NCBI GenBank assembly: GCA_040290035.1
Contig: PSMG01000005.1
Span: 17,727-81,726 of the forward strand
DNA from: Chitinophagaceae bacterium
GTDB taxonomy: Bacteria > Bacteroidota > Bacteroidia > Chitinophagales > Chitinophagaceae
Direction: 5' to 3'
DNA: 64,000 nt
Shown here: piece after piece, positions 14,197-52,726 of the stretch
Layout: each line of letters starts with the position of its first letter
How positions within the stretch are numbered: the stretch's first letter is position 1
Program-made: the position numbers and the translations under genes
The notes under the pieces: generated by a model
What the model was told of the DNA's origin: nothing
Seen by the model: only the letters and a program-made list of their open reading frames with translations
Database searches by the model: none

Positions 14197-15844
14197 CTGA
14201 CTTCCTCACTGGGACACCCAAGACAAATCAAACAGTTTTAGTAAATCATATTGTTCCTGATTTTTGATTATTAGCCTTGTGTGTTTAGTATGAGAGTAAG
14301 GAGTGGTTATTGTCAGTGCGTAAATTGTTTTTAGGATGTCAATTGCTTTTTCCGGGCTTAGGTTTGCTTTTTTCCTTTTGAGTTGTCGTTCCAGTTCTTT
14401 ATAGACTTTACAAGCAGCAAAAGCAATACAGATGTGAGCCTCTATCCTGCGCTTTAGATAATGAAAAATGGGCCTGATGCGTAAATCTGATTTTGATATT
14501 CTAAACGTTTTTTCGATAAACCATAATTGCTTATAGCTTTCTATCACTTCTTCTTTGGTAAGTTGGGTGTTGGTGAGATAGCCTTTTAATCCATCCCACT
14601 TTTCATCTTCTTTAAATTTATTGTAATCAATGCTAATGTTTATTTCCCCTTCCAGCTTAAGATATTTATTATAGCCCTTATTGTTAATGTGCTTTTTAGA
14701 AAGCTTTCCACCAGCCAATGCCTTTTCTAATTTTTGCAATCCCCGTTTGCGGTTGAACGCATCATTTTTCGCTCGCCCTGCAGAATAGCTGACAATAAGT
14801 TTTTGGCCGTTGCCTTTGTCAATAGTACTGCTGCCGCCATCGTCAAGTTTTAAAGATAGCAGGTGTTGCTGGGCTTGAAGTGTTTCATTCTTAATTCTTG
14901 CCCCTAAAATAAATTCATGCTTTTTTTCGCAAAGTCCTTGTATGTTTTTAGCAGATAGCAGGCCTGCATCTGCCACTACTATTAATTTTTCCAGCTTGTA
15001 TTTTTTCTTTGAAAGTTTCTATAACCAGTATCATCGTATGACCTTCAAATTTGCTGCCTTCAAAGAGTTCATAAGCTAACGGATAACCTTCCGTACTTAC
15101 CAGGAGGCCTAAAACAATCTGCGGTTGTTGATGTTTTCCGTCTTTTGAAAACCCTGTCTGTCGAAAATCATCTTCATCTGCTGCTTCAAAATACAAAGTG
15201 GTTACATCATAAAATACAATGGAAATATCATTATCCAATATTTTTAAAGTATGCTGGTAACTTATCTGCTGAACCAATTGCATCTGCTGGGTTTGCAGCT
15301 TATCTAAGTAGCGATATATTTTTTCTACATCTATGATGAGGCCCTTGTATTTAAAAATATAATCGACCGTTTTGAGCTTGCTTACCGGATATACCAATCT
15401 GGCAATGACGAGTTGTCGAAATAGCTCATCCGGTATTTTGTCAAAACCAATTTCGTCAAATATCTTACCCAGTAAGAGTTCCAAACCAGTTAATTTAAAA
15501 TCTTCAACGCTATTGAAAAAAATATCTACTAATTCTTTTTCCTTATCATCATCAAAAGGTAATTTCTGCTGACCGGTGACATTTTCAATTTCCTTTTTAC
15601 CTTCTTTATAAAGCCGCTCAATCTCTGCCGGCTCTTTAGAACTTCCTATCGTACGATACAGTTCATAGCTTCCAGAACTTTTATCAATAATCTGGATGCT
15701 GACAACTCCGCTTTTATTTTTTTTTCTTCCTAACGAACATACCGCTAAAATACAGCGGGGACAACAAGAGCGAAAATACTTTTATAGTATTGTCAACGGT
15801 TTTAGAAGACTTTTCCATGTTTTTTATTGCAGTGAGGAAGTCAG
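14197..15844 (-). mobile_element. IS1634-family insertion sequence
   Basis: Perfect 15-bp terminal inverted repeats CTGACTTCCTCACTG (14197-14211) and CAGTGAGGAAGTCAG (15830-15844) enclose a DDE transposase. No target-site duplication is visible. Confidence 0.88.
14206..15740 (-). pseudogene. IS1634 transposase, split by two +1 homopolymer frameshifts
   Basis: MFVRKKK.. starts at 15740; A9 tract (15717-15725) and A6 tract (15001-15006) each carry one extra A. Motifs FYDVTTLYFE, GFSKDGK, VADAGLLS, IEKTFRISKSDLRIRPIFH. Confidence 0.85.
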
Positions 15845-16232: not shown

Positions 16233-17378
16233 CTATTTTATCGCTGTTGGTTTTTCTATCTGCTTCATATAAGTGCTATCCCACTTTCCTTCCACTTTTA
16301 CCTGGGCCATCGCTCCATAATCAAATGCTTCTATCAGGTTGTGGTCTAAGAAGGCATAAGTGCCAGGCTCCCTGAATTTATACAAAGCTGCTGCTGCGGA
16401 ACCACCGGGAACTTCCCATGTTTCATAATCTGTAAATGGCTTGTTATTAAATTTACCGCCTGGCCAATACAGGTCAGCTTGTCCTCCTATCAAGTGTATC
16501 CTTGTATCACGGTTGGCCTCTCCTGTAATAAATAAAACTTTATCGCCCACTTTAGCAGTCATCGCATTATTGCCTGTCAATGCGCCTACATGCCCATTAA
16601 AAGGAAGAAGAGTTGGCTGTAGAGATTTCATTGCTTCTCCTACTGCGTTGATACTTTCCTGTGGAGTAGCGATATTCAGGACTTTACCATCTTTATCTTT
16701 GGGCAGATAGTAATCTTGCTGCATGATATAATAGGCCTTGTCAAAAGTAACAGAATTGCCATTTTCATCTTTCAAGCCTTCGCGTGGCAAAACCATAATA
16801 GCACCATTCATTCCTGATGTAACATGAATGGGAACCATTACTCCGCCCGGTGCGCAATGGTAAATAAACACTCCTGTTCTGGTAGCTTTAAATCTTAGTT
16901 TTACTTCTTGTCCTGGGTTTACAAGAGTAAGATCTCCACCGCCCATTGCGCCGGTTGATGCATGGAAATCTATATTGTGTGTTTGAGTATTAGTGGCTGG
17001 ATTTTTTAAAGTCAGTTCAATAAAATCATCCTGGTGCACCACTATCATTGGCCCAGGCACTGTGCCGTTAAAAGTAAACGCCCACATAGAATCACCGGGA
17101 GCTATTTCAATTTTCTTTTCTTCAACGGTAAAAGTAACCTGAACTACTTTCGGGCCGTCTTTATCTACCTGGTCAAACTTTGGTAGCATCGGCGGCGCCA
17201 CCATTTCCTGCGTCACTTTAGGTAAATTATCTCCATCTCCGTCATTTTTTTGATCGAGAACTGATGTGCTGCTGTAATTTTTACATGCAGATAATAATAT
17301 TACAAATGAAAATAACAGCATAGATAAAATTCTATAACTGGCTTTTTTTGGATTTGAAGGAAACATTAAATTTTCCAT
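16233..17378 (-). CDS. nirK: Copper-containing nitrite reductase (lipoprotein)
   Basis: Lipobox LSAC; HNIDFH, YHCAP..HVTSGM, RIHLIGG and DHNLIEA supply the type-1 and type-2 Cu ligands and the catalytic Asp/His. Confidence 0.95.
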   Translation of the reverse strand: MENLMFPSNPKKASYRILSMLLFSFVILLSACKNYSSTSVLDQKNDGDGDNLPKVTQEMVAPPMLPKFDQVDKDGPKVVQVTFTVEEKKIEIAPGDSMWAFTFNGTVPGPMIVVHQDDFIELTLKNPATNTQTHNIDFHASTGAMGGGDLTLVNPGQEVKLRFKATRTGVFIYHCAPGGVMVPIHVTSGMNGAIMVLPREGLKDENGNSVTFDKAYYIMQQDYYLPKDKDGKVLNIATPQESINAVGEAMKSLQPTLLPFNGHVGALTGNNAMTAKVGDKVLFITGEANRDTRIHLIGGQADLYWPGGKFNNKPFTDYETWEVPGGSAAAALYKFREPGTYAFLDHNLIEAFDYGAMAQVKVEGKWDSTYMKQIEKPTAIK

Positions 17379-17691: not shown

Positions 17692-18044
17692 GTGATGCGC
17701 CCCATTACGTATATCAAAAACTACATGGGTTATTCCAGCTGGACTACACGATACACCACTCCTCCCTATCCTGAATATCCAGCGGGTCATTCTACCAATG
17801 GCGGTATGTTATCGGTAATGCTTGCTGATGAATTTGGCCCTAATTTTTCGTTTTATGTGAACCATTATACTTACTTAAATCAGCCGGCACGTCATTATAA
17901 TTCGTTTGAAGACCTGGCACAGGAAATGGCTATTGCCAGGGTGTATACAGGTATTCATTATAACTAGCGGTATATGCAGGATTGGCTTTAGGAAAGAAAG
18001 TAGCACAGAATATTTTAACCAATGTTCATTTTCTGAAAGAGTAA
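17692..18044 (+). pseudogene. C-terminal remnant of a vanadium haloperoxidase/PAP2-family gene
   Basis: RPITYI, TPPYPEYPAGHS, ARVYTGIHY; frameshift at ~17962 continues ..GLALGKKVAQNIL..KE*. The N-terminal part is absent. Confidence 0.75.
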
Positions 18045-18516: not shown

Positions 18517-18570
18517 AAAAATGGTTTACCAGCAGAGGTAACAATATTGTGTCACGCCTGCGGTGGTTCA

Positions 18571-18730
18571 AAAGAAAAACCCTCCACATAAGAGGGGTGC
18601 TTCAATGGTGTTCGTTCAGCGGTGTTAGGAGTTTGTTTTCTTAGGCTAAAGATTGGTTTTCATTTTCATAAGCATAAATAGGTTTTTATAAGGTTTGGTT
18701 CAACCGCTGAAAGGAGAATACCGTGCCAAA
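18571..18730 (-). ncRNA. Candidate sigma54-like short transcript A
   Basis: TTTGGCACGGTATT at 18730-18717, A/C-rich body with MLMKMKTNL* (18675-18646), ACGAACACCA (18615-18606), hairpin CCCTC/GAGGG plus U-tract (18596-18571). Confidence 0.5.
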
Positions 18731-18910: not shown

Positions 18911-19234
18911 TTAGGGTTTGTATTTAGCTAATTCTTCGGCTTTCATTTGTACTTCTTCCAACCGGGTATAATTTACTGAGTAATAAATTTTCTTTCCTTC
19001 TCTTTTGGTAACAACAAAACCTGCTGCCCGAAGGATGGCTAATTGTTGCGAGGTAACGGATTGCTCCAAACGAAGTTTGATATAGATTTCTGTAACCGTC
19101 AGGCGTTCAAATTGATGCATCAACGAAAGCATTTGCTGGCGCAGTTTGTGATTGATGGCCCTTAAAATAATAGCTGCTTTTTTCAGCTGAATAATTTGAA
19201 GGTCCAAGCCATTTTCCTGAAGCGTTACAGACAT
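18911..19234 (-). CDS. ArsR/SmtB family transcriptional regulator
   Basis: LRAINHKLRQQML, LEQSVTSQQLAILR, KREGKKIYYS winged HTH. Confidence 0.9.
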   Translation of the reverse strand: MSVTLQENGLDLQIIQLKKAAIILRAINHKLRQQMLSLMHQFERLTVTEIYIKLRLEQSVTSQQLAILRAAGFVVTKREGKKIYYSVNYTRLEEVQMKAEELAKYKP

Positions 19235-30369: not shown

Positions 30370-30996
30370 ATGGAACCCAAAGAAAGAATATTAGTGAAAG
30401 CGCATGAGCTGTTTAACCGCTACGGCATCCGCTCTGTATCTATGGACGATATCGCTGCACAATTAGGCGTGTCGAAAAAGACACTGTATCAGTATTACAC
30501 CGATAAAGACGAATTGGTAAACGCTGTGTTCGCCGTCATTATGGAGGAAAACAAGGTAAAATGCCAGGCCTGCCAAGCAAAAGGCGAAAACGCCATTCAT
30601 GAAGTGTTCCTCTCTTTTGACATGTTGCAGGAAATGCTCTCTAACATGAACCCTTCGGTGCTGTTTGATATGCAGAAGTATCATCCTACCGCATTCAAAA
30701 AGTTTCAGGATTACAGAAATAATTTTTTATACAAAATCATACGTGACAACCTGGAACGGGGAATCGAAGAAGAATTGTACCGGGAAGATTTTGACGTGGA
30801 CATTCTAACCCACTACCGATTGCATAGCATCATGCTGTCGTTTGACTCGGACATTTTTCCGACCAATAAAACGCAATTGGTGTACATAGAACAGCAACTG
30901 TTAGAGCATTTTCTATGGGGATTGGCAACAACTAACGGACAAAAATTAATAAGCAAATACAAACAACAACGAACCAAAAAAGAAGCATTGAAATGA
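30370..30996 (+). CDS. TetR/AcrR family regulator
   Basis: SMDDIAAQLGVSKKTLYQYY HTH. Confidence 0.95.
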   Translation: MEPKERILVKAHELFNRYGIRSVSMDDIAAQLGVSKKTLYQYYTDKDELVNAVFAVIMEENKVKCQACQAKGENAIHEVFLSFDMLQEMLSNMNPSVLFDMQKYHPTAFKKFQDYRNNFLYKIIRDNLERGIEEELYREDFDVDILTHYRLHSIMLSFDSDIFPTNKTQLVYIEQQLLEHFLWGLATTNGQKLISKYKQQRTKKEALK

Positions 30997-43977: not shown

Positions 43978-45051
43978 TTAATCCAGTTTAACAGCAACAG
44001 AAGCTATCAGCACTTCATTGTTCTCATTGGTGGTAGGAATACCCGTTGTACGTTCTATAAAGCGGGTGGCTTTTCGTAACAAACCTTTGAATGGTGATCC
44101 GCTACTGTTGTTGCTTTCTTCCGTAACAGGTTCTTTGTATGTAGTACGCACTACAGATGGAGATGTTACAAGCGAAGTGTTAAGGATATGTTCAGATGTT
44201 TTAGGAATAGTATTGTTGACAGTTACGGCATCAACCGTTGTTGTTCTTTGCACAGGTATATTGTTGGCTATTTCAGCAGGAGTAACTGCTGCAATTGCAT
44301 TATTAGTAGTTGTGTGCTCACCTATCTTATTAGTTACATTATTCTTTGCACTATTATCAGAAGCAATAACTATATGGTGAGTAGCAGGGCCAGTGTCTTT
44401 TACAGCAACTAGTGTTTGTTCTACTGGTGTTGTACTTGTAGTATTAGTAGTATTAGTGGTGCTGGTAATACTTGTTGTATTCTCTTCAACAACTTTTGCA
44501 GGTTCGATAGGATTAGCATTCGCTACATTGATAACAGGCCTATCACCGTTTTGTGCAGAATGCGTCCAGAACCAGGCACCAGCCAGCAGAATGAGTATGG
44601 CAGCTGCTATTTGCAACCATTCGTATCTCTTCTTTATGTGATGGTATAGTTCTTCTTTATTGGGGTAAGCGATGACCTCGTTCTTGTCTAATTTGGTTTT
44701 TAGTAATAGCTGGTATTGTGCCTGCGTGATCTTATTCTCTTCGATCTGTGCAGCCAGTTTGCTTTTTTCATCAAAGCTTAATTCATCATCAATATATAGC
44801 AATAAGGATTCGTCGATGCTGTTCAGGCTCATGCGCTCTGCAAAAAGATCTTCTTTATTAATAGTGATCTCCTCTGTTGGCAATACCACACTTTGCAACA
44901 ATTCCAACTCTGCCTGCAAATCGGGGTGTAACGCAAGGAAGGCATCTACTGCAGCTTTTTGTTCTGGGCTTAATTCGTTGTCCACATACAATAACAAATA
45001 CTCTTCATAGTTGCTGTGGGTAATATTGATATGGTTTGAATTAGATGACAT
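43978..45051 (-). CDS. Membrane-anchored anti-sigma factor
   Basis: Two repeats of LLLY[VI]D[ND]ELS, one TM, a Thr-rich periplasmic tail; overlaps the ECF sigma stop. Confidence 0.75.
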   Translation of the reverse strand: MSSNSNHINITHSNYEEYLLLYVDNELSPEQKAAVDAFLALHPDLQAELELLQSVVLPTEEITINKEDLFAERMSLNSIDESLLLYIDDELSFDEKSKLAAQIEENKITQAQYQLLLKTKLDKNEVIAYPNKEELYHHIKKRYEWLQIAAAILILLAGAWFWTHSAQNGDRPVINVANANPIEPAKVVEENTTSITSTTNTTNTTSTTPVEQTLVAVKDTGPATHHIVIASDNSAKNNVTNKIGEHTTTNNAIAAVTPAEIANNIPVQRTTTVDAVTVNNTIPKTSEHILNTSLVTSPSVVRTTYKEPVTEESNNSSGSPFKGLLRKATRFIERTTGIPTTNENNEVLIASVAVKLD

Positions 45052-45526
45052 TTTCAATTGTTACTAGGTAATCTTTTAATTGTAACCGGGCACGATGCAG
45101 GTACACTTTCACCTGGCTTTCGCTCAGGTTCGTGATCTTTCCTATTTCTTCGTAGCTATAGCCCTCGTAGTCTTTCAACATCACCAGGGAACGCTGCGTT
45201 TCGCTTAGCCGGGCCAATGCCTGTTGTAAGACCTCTTTGGTATTGTTGATTGGTTTATGCTGAATTCTTGTCTCTTCGTTGAACTCCTCCTTTAAATACA
45301 CCCGCTTTACCTTGCGCAGGTGATCGATCATTTGGTGATAAGCCACTGTGAAGAGATAAGACTTGCTTTTGGCATAATCCACTTCTTCCCTGGCCCGCCA
45401 CAGGTTTTCGAAGGCGCTTTGCACCACATCACGTGCATCCTCTTCGTGCCGGAGGTTTTTGACAATGAAGCGGAACACACCGTCGGCATGCTCAGAAACA
45501 CAGTGATTATATTCTTTTTCGGTCAT
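45041..45526 (-). CDS. ECF RNA polymerase sigma factor
   Basis: DARDVVQSAF, SYLFTVA, LKDYEGYSYEEIG, VKVYLHRAR. Confidence 0.95.
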   Translation of the reverse strand: MTEKEYNHCVSEHADGVFRFIVKNLRHEEDARDVVQSAFENLWRAREEVDYAKSKSYLFTVAYHQMIDHLRKVKRVYLKEEFNEETRIQHKPINNTKEVLQQALARLSETQRSLVMLKDYEGYSYEEIGKITNLSESQVKVYLHRARLQLKDYLVTIENVI

Positions 45527-45560
45527 AAACAGTGGTGAAAAAAGTCGTTTGAACACCTAT

Positions 45561-46226: not shown

Positions 46227-46985
46227 ATGATAAAAGATTTTCCAGGCGAACAATGGAAGACAGTTCGGTTCGATTTTGAATTTACTAATGACTTTCGTCT
46301 TGAAGTTTCCAATTTTGGACGACTTCGGACTTTTAATAAAGTTTCCAATGGCAACCTTATTAAAGGCTCGATGATTAACGGATACCGTATTGTTCGACTG
46401 AAGTTGTATAAGCCGAGAGATGAAAAAGTGCAAGCAAAACTTGACAACCTAAAGCAACAAGTTTTTAAATTGGCAAGGAAACTGAAGTCGCAACAAATTA
46501 ATGGTGAAAACAAGGAAATCATTCACGAAACAACTGCATTGCTGCACATATTTAAAAAGAAGGTGAGTAAAAAGTTTCAGCAAGACCTCAAAGAACGGAC
46601 AATAAATTATCATTCGCTAATTCACCGCCTCGTGGCTGACTATTTTCTTCCAAAACCAAAACCTAACCAAACCATTGTTGCGCATCTTGATTATGACAAA
46701 CTAAATAACAGAGCTGCTAACCTAAAGTGGATGACACCTGAAGAGAATTATGAGCATCAAAAAAGAAGTCCATATGTAATTAAGGACAAGCAACAACGAC
46801 AATTAAGACAACAGTCCAATCCTAACAGAGCAAAGCTGACCGTGACGAGAGTAATGCTATTAAAAAAATTACTTAATGAAGGCAAACCAATGAAACAACT
46901 CGTAAAGGTGTTCAAAGTGACAGATACGCAAATACTTAGAATAAAACGTGGTGAAAACTGGGCAAACGTACCAGCAAAAAGATAG
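46227..46985 (+). CDS. NUMOD4/HNH endonuclease-like protein with a coiled-coil insertion and C-terminal HTH
   Basis: EQWK..EVSNFGRLR (NUMOD4), IHRLVADYF, AHLDYDKLNNRAANLKWMTPEENYEH (HNH), QILRIKRGENW. Confidence 0.85.
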   Translation: MIKDFPGEQWKTVRFDFEFTNDFRLEVSNFGRLRTFNKVSNGNLIKGSMINGYRIVRLKLYKPRDEKVQAKLDNLKQQVFKLARKLKSQQINGENKEIIHETTALLHIFKKKVSKKFQQDLKERTINYHSLIHRLVADYFLPKPKPNQTIVAHLDYDKLNNRAANLKWMTPEENYEHQKRSPYVIKDKQQRQLRQQSNPNRAKLTVTRVMLLKKLLNEGKPMKQLVKVFKVTDTQILRIKRGENWANVPAKR

Positions 46986-51114: not shown

Positions 51115-51360
51115 ATGACGCTGTTTGATTTTAAACTGCTCGGTATGGAAGACCAGATTGAGCAAGTGTATAGAGAAGGTGTTTACATTGGTAAAAGAAG
51201 AATGCTAGAACAATTTGTACTACTGTACCAGGTAGAAAGTTTTTACGTGGAGTTGTATTACAAGAAGTACCGGCAAAGTGTGTTAAGCATTAAATGTTCT
51301 GCATCGACCAGTATTTTAGATCCTTACTTAGAACAAATAGAAGTGGAAGACTGGGCATAG
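51115..51360 (+). CDS. Hypothetical 81-aa protein
   Basis: MTLFDFKLL..DQI..V...GVYIGKR..LYQVESFYVELYY..LDPYLEQI; start moved to ATG 51115. Confidence 0.7.
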   Translation: MTLFDFKLLGMEDQIEQVYREGVYIGKRRMLEQFVLLYQVESFYVELYYKKYRQSVLSIKCSASTSILDPYLEQIEVEDWA

Positions 51361-51386
51361 TCTAAAAACAAGCCACCATTAATGCC

Positions 51387-51836
51387 ATGACAAAATCGAT
51401 AACGCCGAAGAACATTGTTTTGTACGCAGATGATGATGTAGATGATTTGGAACTGGTGCAAGATGCGTTTGCCAAATATTCGAGAGATGTAGAAGTGATC
51501 ACTGCACGTGACGGCAAGGAAGCTTTGCGCATTTTGCAAAAGCTTTCTCCACTTGATCCTAAGCCTTGCCTGATCATCCTGGATGTAAACATGCCTGTAA
51601 TGGATGGTAAGGAAGCACTGGTAAGGATCAGAGAAATGGATGCATTCGACGATGTGCCTGTTGTTTTGTTCACTACTTCTTCTATGCCGATTGATAAGAA
51701 TTTTGCCAGACAGTTCAATGCCGGTTTTATTACCAAGCCGCTTGATATAAAACAAATGGAACTGATTACCGAACAGTTCATTGATCATTGCACAGACGAA
51801 ATTAAAAAGAAAATACGCAGACAAATTGGTAACTAA
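51387..51836 (+). CDS. Single-domain response regulator
   Basis: YADDDVDD, IILDVNMPVMDG, FTTS, FITKP. Confidence 0.93.
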   Translation: MTKSITPKNIVLYADDDVDDLELVQDAFAKYSRDVEVITARDGKEALRILQKLSPLDPKPCLIILDVNMPVMDGKEALVRIREMDAFDDVPVVLFTTSSMPIDKNFARQFNAGFITKPLDIKQMELITEQFIDHCTDEIKKKIRRQIGN

Positions 51837-51844
51837 ATCATACA

Positions 51845-51968
51845 ATAAAAGCCTCTTGTAAGAGGCTTTTACGTTGGTGTTCGTCATTGTCAGAGGGTAG
51901 ACTTAAAAGGTTTCCATAGGAATCAGTTGTCAGTCGCTGCGCTGCTAAAAGTAAATACTATGCCAAAA
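51845..51968 (-). ncRNA. Candidate sigma54-like short transcript B
   Basis: TTTGGCATAGTATTTAC (51967-51951), METF* (51917-51903), ACGAACACCA (51884-51875), terminator AAAAGCCTCT-tgta-AGAGGCTTTT (51847-51870). Confidence 0.55.
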
Positions 51969-52129
51969 ACTTAGCCTGCGCAGTTTTACGATAAAATCAT
52001 TTGTATTTCAACCTTAGTAATGAAGTGGAAGTGCTCTTTTATGAGCCGATGCTGCCGAGTAGCTTTGTTGTTCAAAGCAGTTTTCTCTTGAGCAATTAGT
52101 TTGGTAAGCCTGTGTATCTACACAGGCTT

Positions 52130-52726
52130 TTATTTTACTACAGGTTTATAGCGTGCCTGCTGTGTACTTAGCTTTTGCAATAGGGCTTTTATTTTTTCTA
52201 CACCAATTTTTTGGCTCCATTCAAAAGGACCATATGGATAATTGGTGCCGAGCTTCATAGCGACATCTATTTCTTCTTTTGTACTTACACCTTCTTTTAA
52301 TGCGTAGTAAGCTTCGTTTACGATCATGCTAATGACACGAGGTGTGATGAAGCCAACTACATCAGTTACCCAGCGTATTGTTTTATTGAATTGCTGGAAG
52401 ATGCTTTCGGCTAATTCTTTTTTGCTTCCGTCGATGCAAACCGCTTCGACGACAGCTGCTTTTAATAAGGTAGGCCAACCGTTGATACGAATAAAGGAAG
52501 GATCGATTTCGGGCAGTGTATGTTCAACACTATTAACGATCACTAATGAAGTAGCGGTCTGTAACTTTTGAATACGTTCGGTTTTGTTCTCAAACAATAA
52601 ATCAACAATAACTTCTGCTTCACTTGATAATTCACTTAGATCATTGATCCAAACAGCATCTTGTGGCGCACCGATACTACACAACTCTTCTTTTAATTCA
52701 TCATTAGCAATAATTACTAATTGCAT
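52130..52726 (-). CDS. 3-hydroxyacyl-CoA dehydrogenase family protein (degenerate N-terminus)
   Basis: GFITPRVISMIVNEAY, IDVAMKLGTNYPYGP; no GxGxxG motif; start moved to ATG 52726. Confidence 0.85.
   Translation of the reverse strand: MQLVIIANDELKEELCSIGAPQDAVWINDLSELSSEAEVIVDLLFENKTERIQKLQTATSLVIVNSVEHTLPEIDPSFIRINGWPTLLKAAVVEAVCIDGSKKELAESIFQQFNKTIRWVTDVVGFITPRVISMIVNEAYYALKEGVSTKEEIDVAMKLGTNYPYGPFEWSQKIGVEKIKALLQKLSTQQARYKPVVK

Follow-up and report, generated by a model that had tools for sequence, protein, structure and literature searches.

A spacer with two opposed hairpins between convergent genes of a soil Chitinophagaceae bacterium: ordinary junction or small RNA unit?

The DNA analysed is a stretch of 64,000 nucleotides, referred to below as the window, from an uncultured soil Chitinophagaceae bacterium near Flavisolibacter. 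The locus under study is the junction spacer at 51837-52129, which lies between two convergent transcription units and holds two hairpins. On one side, a receiver-only response-regulator gene is located at 51387-51836 on the + strand (PF00072, E 2.7e-16), convergent with the candidate transcription unit discussed here, which is called unit B. On the other side, the spacer is entered on the − strand directly from the gene upstream of unit B, a 3HCDH-like gene of 198 aa with a 3-hydroxyacyl-CoA-dehydrogenase C-terminal domain (52130-52726, − strand; PF00725), whose stop codon is at 52132-52130. Read along the − strand, this stop codon is followed by the hairpin at 52129-52106, approximately 140 nt, the box TTTGGCATAGTATTTAC, CAGCG in two copies, a tiny ORF (METF*), the 10-mer ACGAACACCA, and the other hairpin, and the response-regulator stop codon is found 10 nt past that hairpin (51872-51845 in the − strand reading).

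A preliminary description of this DNA, made from the letters, had assigned to unit B a promoter-like box, CAGCG as in a second unit (unit A), the METF* ORF, the 10-mer, and a hairpin 4 nt later, and each of these elements was found in its place. The −24/−12-like box occupies 51951-51967 on the − strand, with GG at 51964-51963 and the "−12" doublet AC at 51952-51951. The two CAGCG copies are read from the sequence at 51944-51935 (−), and the four-codon ORF ATG GAA ACC TTT TAA is at 51903-51917 (−), a sequence reading that is unsupported as a gene. The unit B copy of the 10-mer, common to unit A, is located at 51875-51884 (−), 4 nt 5' of the hairpin. Once its terminator is removed, unit B shows no more structure than shuffled sequences (z +0.25); the z of −2.77 obtained for the whole unit is due to its hairpin. 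The view that unit B has no protein gene to drive also held, as there is no downstream gene on the same strand and the next gene is the convergent response regulator. On the − strand, a 187-aa ORF spans 51324-51887, with its ATG one base 5' of the 10-mer (ATGACGAACACCA...); it is not a gene but a shadow ORF, lying antisense to that of the response regulator.

Unit A is flanked by a gene of the ArsR family and by an ORF for a 95-aa membrane protein, and the order of its parts is that of unit B, namely box, CAGCG, 10-mer, and hairpin. The unit A box TTTGGCACGGTATTCTC lies at 18714-18730 on the − strand with TC as its "−12" doublet, and the 10-mer is at 18606-18615 (−), 9 nt 5' of the unit A hairpin. 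The unit A terminator (18570-18596, −) consists of a CCCTC/GAGGG stem with a 7-nt loop, followed by TTTTTCTTTT, where the hairpin itself (18596-18580) is weaker than that of unit B. The 10-mer is present in exactly two copies in the window, both on the − strand and both just 5' of a hairpin, and it is unpaired in the predicted folds of both units.

The two hairpins of the spacer differ in polarity. The hairpin that follows the 10-mer is a perfect AAAAGCCTCTT/AAGAGGCTTTT stem of 11-12 bp at 51870-51847, extendable to 51872-51845, and acts in prediction as an intrinsic terminator in both directions; on the − strand, it is followed by UUAUUGUAUGAUUU, a long U-rich tail. Under the criteria for intrinsic terminators, which are a GC-containing hairpin and a U-tract, it passes on both strands and best on the − strand. 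This hairpin also closes the + strand response-regulator gene. At five or more other places in the window, a single hairpin is likewise read as a terminator on both strands. The second hairpin (52106-52129, 10-11 bp) is oriented on the + strand and begins directly past the 3HCDH-like stop codon. Its U-tract TTATTTTACT is present on the + strand only, while the − strand continues with ACCAAACT, and the terminator scan accordingly called 52106-52129 on the + strand only and 51845-51872 on both strands. Unit B had been described as insulated between two other terminators at 51847-70 and 52106-34. However, the hairpin at 51847-70 is the unit's own, so that the spacer holds two hairpins and not three, and the insulation does not stand, because the hairpin at 52106-52129 has no U-tract on the − strand and unit B is thus not insulated from the 3HCDH-like gene. 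Read-through from that gene is likely the simplest source of − strand RNA in the spacer. A reading of the hairpin ends as the terminal inverted repeats of a MITE was rejected, as the 14-nt repeat at 51841-54 and 52124-37 represents the AAAAGCC...GGCTTTT ends typical of the terminators of this genome.

The relation between units A and B was evaluated by several statistics. The count of the 10-mer in the window is 2 against 0.09 expected, in a test which ignores the look-elsewhere effect. A set of 336 pairs was obtained from the 160 nt upstream of the 27 terminator-like hairpins in the window, and an exact 10-mer or longer word is common to 17 of these 336 pairs. In the same set, the local alignment score of the A-B pair ranks from 3rd to 7th depending on the scoring scheme, with 2-6 other pairs equal or better, and when either unit was used as the nhmmer query, the other was not recovered at E ≤ 10. 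Among shuffled windows, 11% contain one or more pairs with a common 10-mer within 25 nt of both terminators (p~0.11). When the terminator-proximal 10-mer is combined with a 12/14 block upstream, the share is reduced to 0.7% of shuffled windows (p~0.007; 0/60 in another run), for a test that was chosen post hoc. As this joint statistic was defined after the data had been seen, its true significance is weaker, perhaps 0.01-0.05. The co-occurrence of motifs in A and B is somewhat beyond chance; it is borderline and not compelling. Explanation of the 10-mer as a target-site duplication around a 33-kb insertion was rejected, since the boxes would then fall on opposite sides of the junctions. AGTTTTTGGCA occurs a third time at ~27200, as does GCAGGC-TGGCAT at 30561; as candidate boxes both were set aside, since they fall within coding regions.

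The box of unit B had also been taken as a canonical −24/−12 promoter. The GG doublet and its spacing do fit TGGCAC-N5-TTGC, but the sequences TGGCAT-AGTAT-TTAC in unit B and TGGCAC-GGTAT-TCTC in unit A show that the "−12" doublet is not GC in either unit (AC in B and TC in A). In the sigma-54 consensus, the GG and GC doublets are marked as invariant (PMC4253122), and validated promoters that deviate at the −12 GC exist as rare exceptions (PMC12316311). Matches to TGGCAY-N5-TTGC with at most one mismatch number 8 in the window compared with 12.75 expected from shuffles, and a sigma-54-like match of this kind carries no weight. A GAFTGA-type activator motif was not found in any frame of the window, nor was an inverted repeat common to the regions upstream of A and B seen by eye. 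Both boxes are preceded by a Bacteroidetes −7 box with one mismatch, TCAGTTTG in A and TAAGTTTT in B. The primary-sigma (sigma-ABfr) promoter of Bacteroidetes is given as TAnnTTTG at −7 with an optional TTTG near −33 (PMC7366714). Over the whole window, exact TAnnTTTG sites are depleted, with 53 found against ~84 expected from shuffles, and they are concentrated in non-coding DNA upstream of genes; this depletion and placement fit selection against spurious primary-sigma promoters.

Four contigs of the same species are identical at 100% across the spacer, and a fifth is identical across unit A. In a strain from metagenomic run X1, which is ~0.4% diverged, there are zero changes between the two hairpins, and two changes in the hairpin at 52106-52129, both of them loop bases; the other hairpin has a single change, located in its tail. 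In the 321 nt of unit A, the sole SNP of this strain, C->T at 18725, turns TGGCAC into TGGTAC, a single event that points away from selection on the box. The proposal that the promoter and the 10-mer are kept by selection is not supported: the same-species contigs are identical, an orthologous spacer was not found, and the only SNP in unit A hits the box.

The orthologous spacer was sought from both flanks. On the side of the 3HCDH-like gene, none was found in 80 GTDB Chitinophagaceae genomes, where the relatives of this gene reach at most 58% identity and the gene runs directly into tsaB. On the response-regulator side, the relatives at 83-86% have no such spacer, a second regulator gene following ~70 nt on along the same strand, and the relatives at 71-73% have other genes downstream and no orthologous spacer. 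The absence of an orthologous spacer is explained by the fact that the flanking genes have other neighbours in the relatives, and it therefore counts neither for nor against conservation of the promoter and the 10-mer. For unit A, the ArsR gene in its relatives (64-68%) is flanked by tsaB on one side and by an MBL-rhodanese gene on the other; the window contains no copy of either flanking gene. In relatives (loci L076, L092, L093, and L096), the 3HCDH-like gene, tsaB, ArsR, and the MBL-rhodanese gene form one co-directional cluster. In the present genome, the 3HCDH-like gene (52130-52726) and ArsR (18911-19234) keep their order and strand and are 33 kb apart, and units B and A are placed exactly where tsaB and the MBL-rhodanese gene would start. 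These differing neighbours indicate that both units lie at lineage-specific junctions. The units were also considered as remnants of decayed genes (tsaB or the second regulator for B, the MBL-rhodanese gene for A), which was rejected as no protein or DNA similarity was found. AACGAACACCA also occurs in a Sediminibacterium MBL-rhodanese gene, where its distance from ArsR is similar, but other orthologs do not keep it and the match is regarded as a coincidence.

Searches for further family members used the pattern TTGGCAYRGTATT-gap-ACGAACACCA, which recovers A and B in the window. It gave no further match among Chitinophagaceae loci totalling ~960 kb. In 241 million metagenome records, TTGGCAYRGTATT...ACGAACACCA was matched once, on L091, within a liv permease gene of high GC content, and this match is considered a chance occurrence; this negative result is weak because the collection missed a JGI contig known to carry an identical unit B. 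In the X1 metagenome, paralogs of either unit at 80% likeness or more were not found besides the loci themselves. With Rfam 15, the whole window gave nothing at gathering thresholds and no family at permissive thresholds, where the best sub-threshold scores are terminator-driven (MicC, 24.8 bits vs 90; Phe_leader, 21.6 bits vs 55). The plasmid and phage collections gave no match, the host was present in none of the RNA-seq runs searched, and the literature matches for the 10-mer were primers only.

A third box of the same shape, TGACACAATATTGTTAC, lies at 18538-18554 on the − strand, 38 nt upstream of the ATG of the 95-aa ORF. Its positional counterpart is TGGCACGGAATTATT at 191-205 of L103, located 36 nt upstream of the ATG of an ortholog with 69% identity. 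The motif GCAGG precedes the box before the 95-aa gene, the box before the L103 ortholog, and the box of unit B. From these sequences, the TGRCAC-N5-T box may be a real promoter or operator of the 95-aa gene.

Several other features of the window were observed near this gene and elsewhere. Between the 95-aa ORF and a copper nitrite reductase-like gene (16233-17378), a 91-aa ORF is stranded at 17692-17967 (+); it has a weak PAP2 match (VCPO_2nd on contig L102) and resembles a gene fragment. At 14206-15484 (−), between nirK and ribosomal-protein genes, two overlapping ORFs of 178 and 256 aa resemble a frameshift-split transposase, of which the 256-aa ORF has a sub-threshold DDE_Tnp_1 match (E 1.4e-4); contig L102 shows this split as well. 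At 46227-46985 (+), a homing-endonuclease-like gene with NUMOD4 and HNH_3 adjoins an ECF sigma/anti-sigma pair (43978-45556) and has three exact TAnnTTTG sites upstream (46060, 46108, 46215).

The RNA-based and DNA-based explanations of unit B can be considered together. In one reading, which is essentially that of the preliminary description, unit B would be a gene of its own for a small non-coding − strand RNA of ~95 nt, related to unit A as a sibling that has diverged. Its transcription would be driven by a promoter at or near the TTTGGCAYRGTATT box, of a type that need not be sigma-54. The body of the RNA would be unstructured, and the single-stranded ACGAACACCA just before the Rho-independent terminator would serve as a seed for base-pairing with mRNAs that contain UGGUGUUCGU. 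In a variant based on the −7 boxes (unit A, TCAGTTTG; unit B, TAAGTTTT), transcription would start inside GGCAYRGTATT. This reading is rather unlikely, although likelier than the other rivals. The equal order, strand, and layout of both units, the joint motif statistic (p~0.007), the 10-mer unpaired in the predicted folds, and the lack of a same-strand gene downstream of B are in its favour, and paralogous sRNA families with a single-stranded seed and a terminator, FopS/GibS, occur in the phylum (PMC11697453). However, the statistic is post hoc and the 10-mer alone gives p 0.11, homology between A and B is not seen by nhmmer, further copies are absent from the ~960 kb of Chitinophagaceae loci and from the metagenome scan, a search of the X1 metagenome at 80% likeness gave no close paralogs, the units match none of the Rfam families (FopS/GibS among them), and the box is hit by the SNP in strain X1. 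The part of this reading in which the RNA is driven by sigma-54 is very improbable, as the −12 GC is missing from both units. That A and B are lineage-specific sibling regulatory RNAs with a non-canonical TGGCAY-N5-T promoter class and ACGAACACCA as a 3'-proximal single-stranded seed is judged unlikely.

RNA from the opposite strand was also considered. A candidate promoter, TTTT-N19-TAGCTTTG, is located at 52037-52067 (+) and contains an exact TAnnTTTG at 52060-52067 with a −33-like TTTT. From it, a + strand RNA of ~60-65 nt would start at ~52073-52076 and end at the terminator at 52106-52129, with its 3' end complementary to the final codons of the 3HCDH-like gene and to the terminator of that gene. 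In the candidate region (52037-52140), a 5' hairpin is followed by this + oriented terminator, which begins 38 nt downstream of the exact −7 box, and the predicted fold of a 73-nt stretch is much more stable than those of its shuffles (z −4.33). The −7 motif is predictive in this window: of its 53 exact sites, 24 are in the non-coding part, which makes up 21% of the sequence as called, and ~14 of these 24 precede a called gene start by at most 160 nt. However, by the site density, an exact −7 box would occur by chance in ~18% of stretches of 470 nt (both strands), the terminator dominates the fold score, and the hairpin may be a mere backup terminator for the response-regulator operon. By its exact −7 box and fold z, the ~60-nt + strand RNA is signalled at least as well as unit B, and its existence is nevertheless improbable. 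A smaller chance still is given to an action of the boxes on DNA, as operators or as a non-canonical promoter class TGRCAY-N5-T under one regulator or alternative sigma factor, with the 10-mer incidental; units A and B would then be orphaned or duplicated copies of the promoter of the 95-aa gene. The boxes at 38 nt (TGACACAATATTGTT) and 36 nt (TGGCACGGAATTATT) before the ATGs of the two orthologs, both preceded by GCAGG, and the ECF sigma/anti-sigma pair encoded in the window agree with such an action. However, TGRCAYNNWATT is found 4 times vs 2.6 expected, which is not significant, the GCAGGS...TGRCAY pattern is post hoc and its third match is in a coding region, and the argument is based on one ortholog.

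The reading that we prefer, tentatively and at slightly below an even chance, is that of an ordinary lineage-specific junction spacer between convergent units, closed by two opposed terminators, in which the resemblance to unit A is non-functional. The + strand unit would be the response-regulator operon and the − strand unit the 3HCDH-like gene, with hairpins of opposite polarity closing the spacer between them. The 3HCDH-like mRNA would pass the first hairpin, which has no − strand U-tract, and end at 51872-51845, and − strand RNA over unit B would mainly be the 3' tail of this mRNA. Read-through on the + strand from the response-regulator operon would be caught by the hairpin at 52106-52129, and between them the hairpins would prevent antisense transcription of either gene. 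On this view, neither the TGGCAY box nor the tiny ORF nor the 10-mer would serve as a signal of a sigma-54 sRNA, and their likeness to unit A would be due to chance or to an unselected remnant. The hairpin polarity, the unstructured body of unit B, the absence of the −12 GC and of a GAFTGA motif, the lack of A-B similarity in nhmmer, the differing neighbours in relatives, the metagenome scan, and the SNP in the unit A box speak for it. Random promoters are expected in low-GC Bacteroidetes genomes (PMC7366714).

Transcripts of this kind, 3' tails and partial-termination transcripts, are common in the flavobacterial transcriptome (PMC9723704). In Flavobacterium psychrophilum, 586 3' regions and 67 partial-termination regions have been reported (PMC9723704), and the 3' tails resemble the RNA proposed here in that non-coding RNA extends past a weak terminator to a stronger second one and is partly antisense to the end of the convergent neighbour (PMC9723704). 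The F. psychrophilum classes were derived from RNA-seq (PMC9723704), whereas the present assignment is drawn solely from hairpin polarity. Some observations speak against the ordinary spacer. Single hairpins serve both strands elsewhere in the window, so that two hairpins 235 nt apart leave the DNA between them unexplained, and no trace of tsaB, of the second regulator, or of the MBL-rhodanese gene is seen in this DNA. The combination of the 10-mer with the 12/14 box is reached in 0.7% of shuffles. In addition, the third same-shaped box before the 95-aa gene and its ortholog means that TGRCAY-N5-T may be a real promoter type in this lineage.

If the units are sibling sRNAs, the closest model is FopS/GibS of Bacteroides (PMC11697453) and not Qrr. 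FopS/GibS belong to the same phylum, with several diverged copies per genome that have a common seed (PMC11697453, PMC7366714), and the structure of FopS has been deposited in Rfam (PMC11697453). The seed of FopS is at the 5' end (PMC11697453), whereas the common 10-mer of units A and B is 3'-proximal. FopS is expressed from 14 copies, its promoters are of the sigma-ABfr or PM2 type, it has RbpB as a partner, and its susC targets have been validated (PMC11697453), in contrast to two candidates here. The preliminary description points to another model, that of sigma-54-dependent sRNAs such as Qrr and NrsZ of Pseudomonas (PMC4253122), in which sibling sRNAs have −24/−12 promoters, a common stretch, and their own terminators. 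The promoters of Qrr and NrsZ have both GG and GC doublets and an identified activator (LuxO and NtrC, respectively), whereas A and B lack the −12 GC, and an activator or upstream activator site for them was not identified in the 64-kb window. Qrr1-5 of Vibrio are sigma-54-dependent sibling sRNAs. To our knowledge, Bacteroidota do not have the Hfq pathway that is used by the Qrr and NrsZ sRNAs, and we know of no described sRNA from Chitinophagaceae.

The analysis indicates that AT-rich spacers near terminators easily give promoter-like boxes and shared 10-mers, and that hairpin polarity needs to be checked before a unit is called insulated. If the sibling-sRNA reading is true, A and B would add a member to a kind of regulator that is already well known and would be, as far as we know, the first sibling-sRNA pair proposed for soil Chitinophagaceae, and they would give a hint of an unrecognised promoter class in a phylum which lacks Hfq and has unusual promoters.
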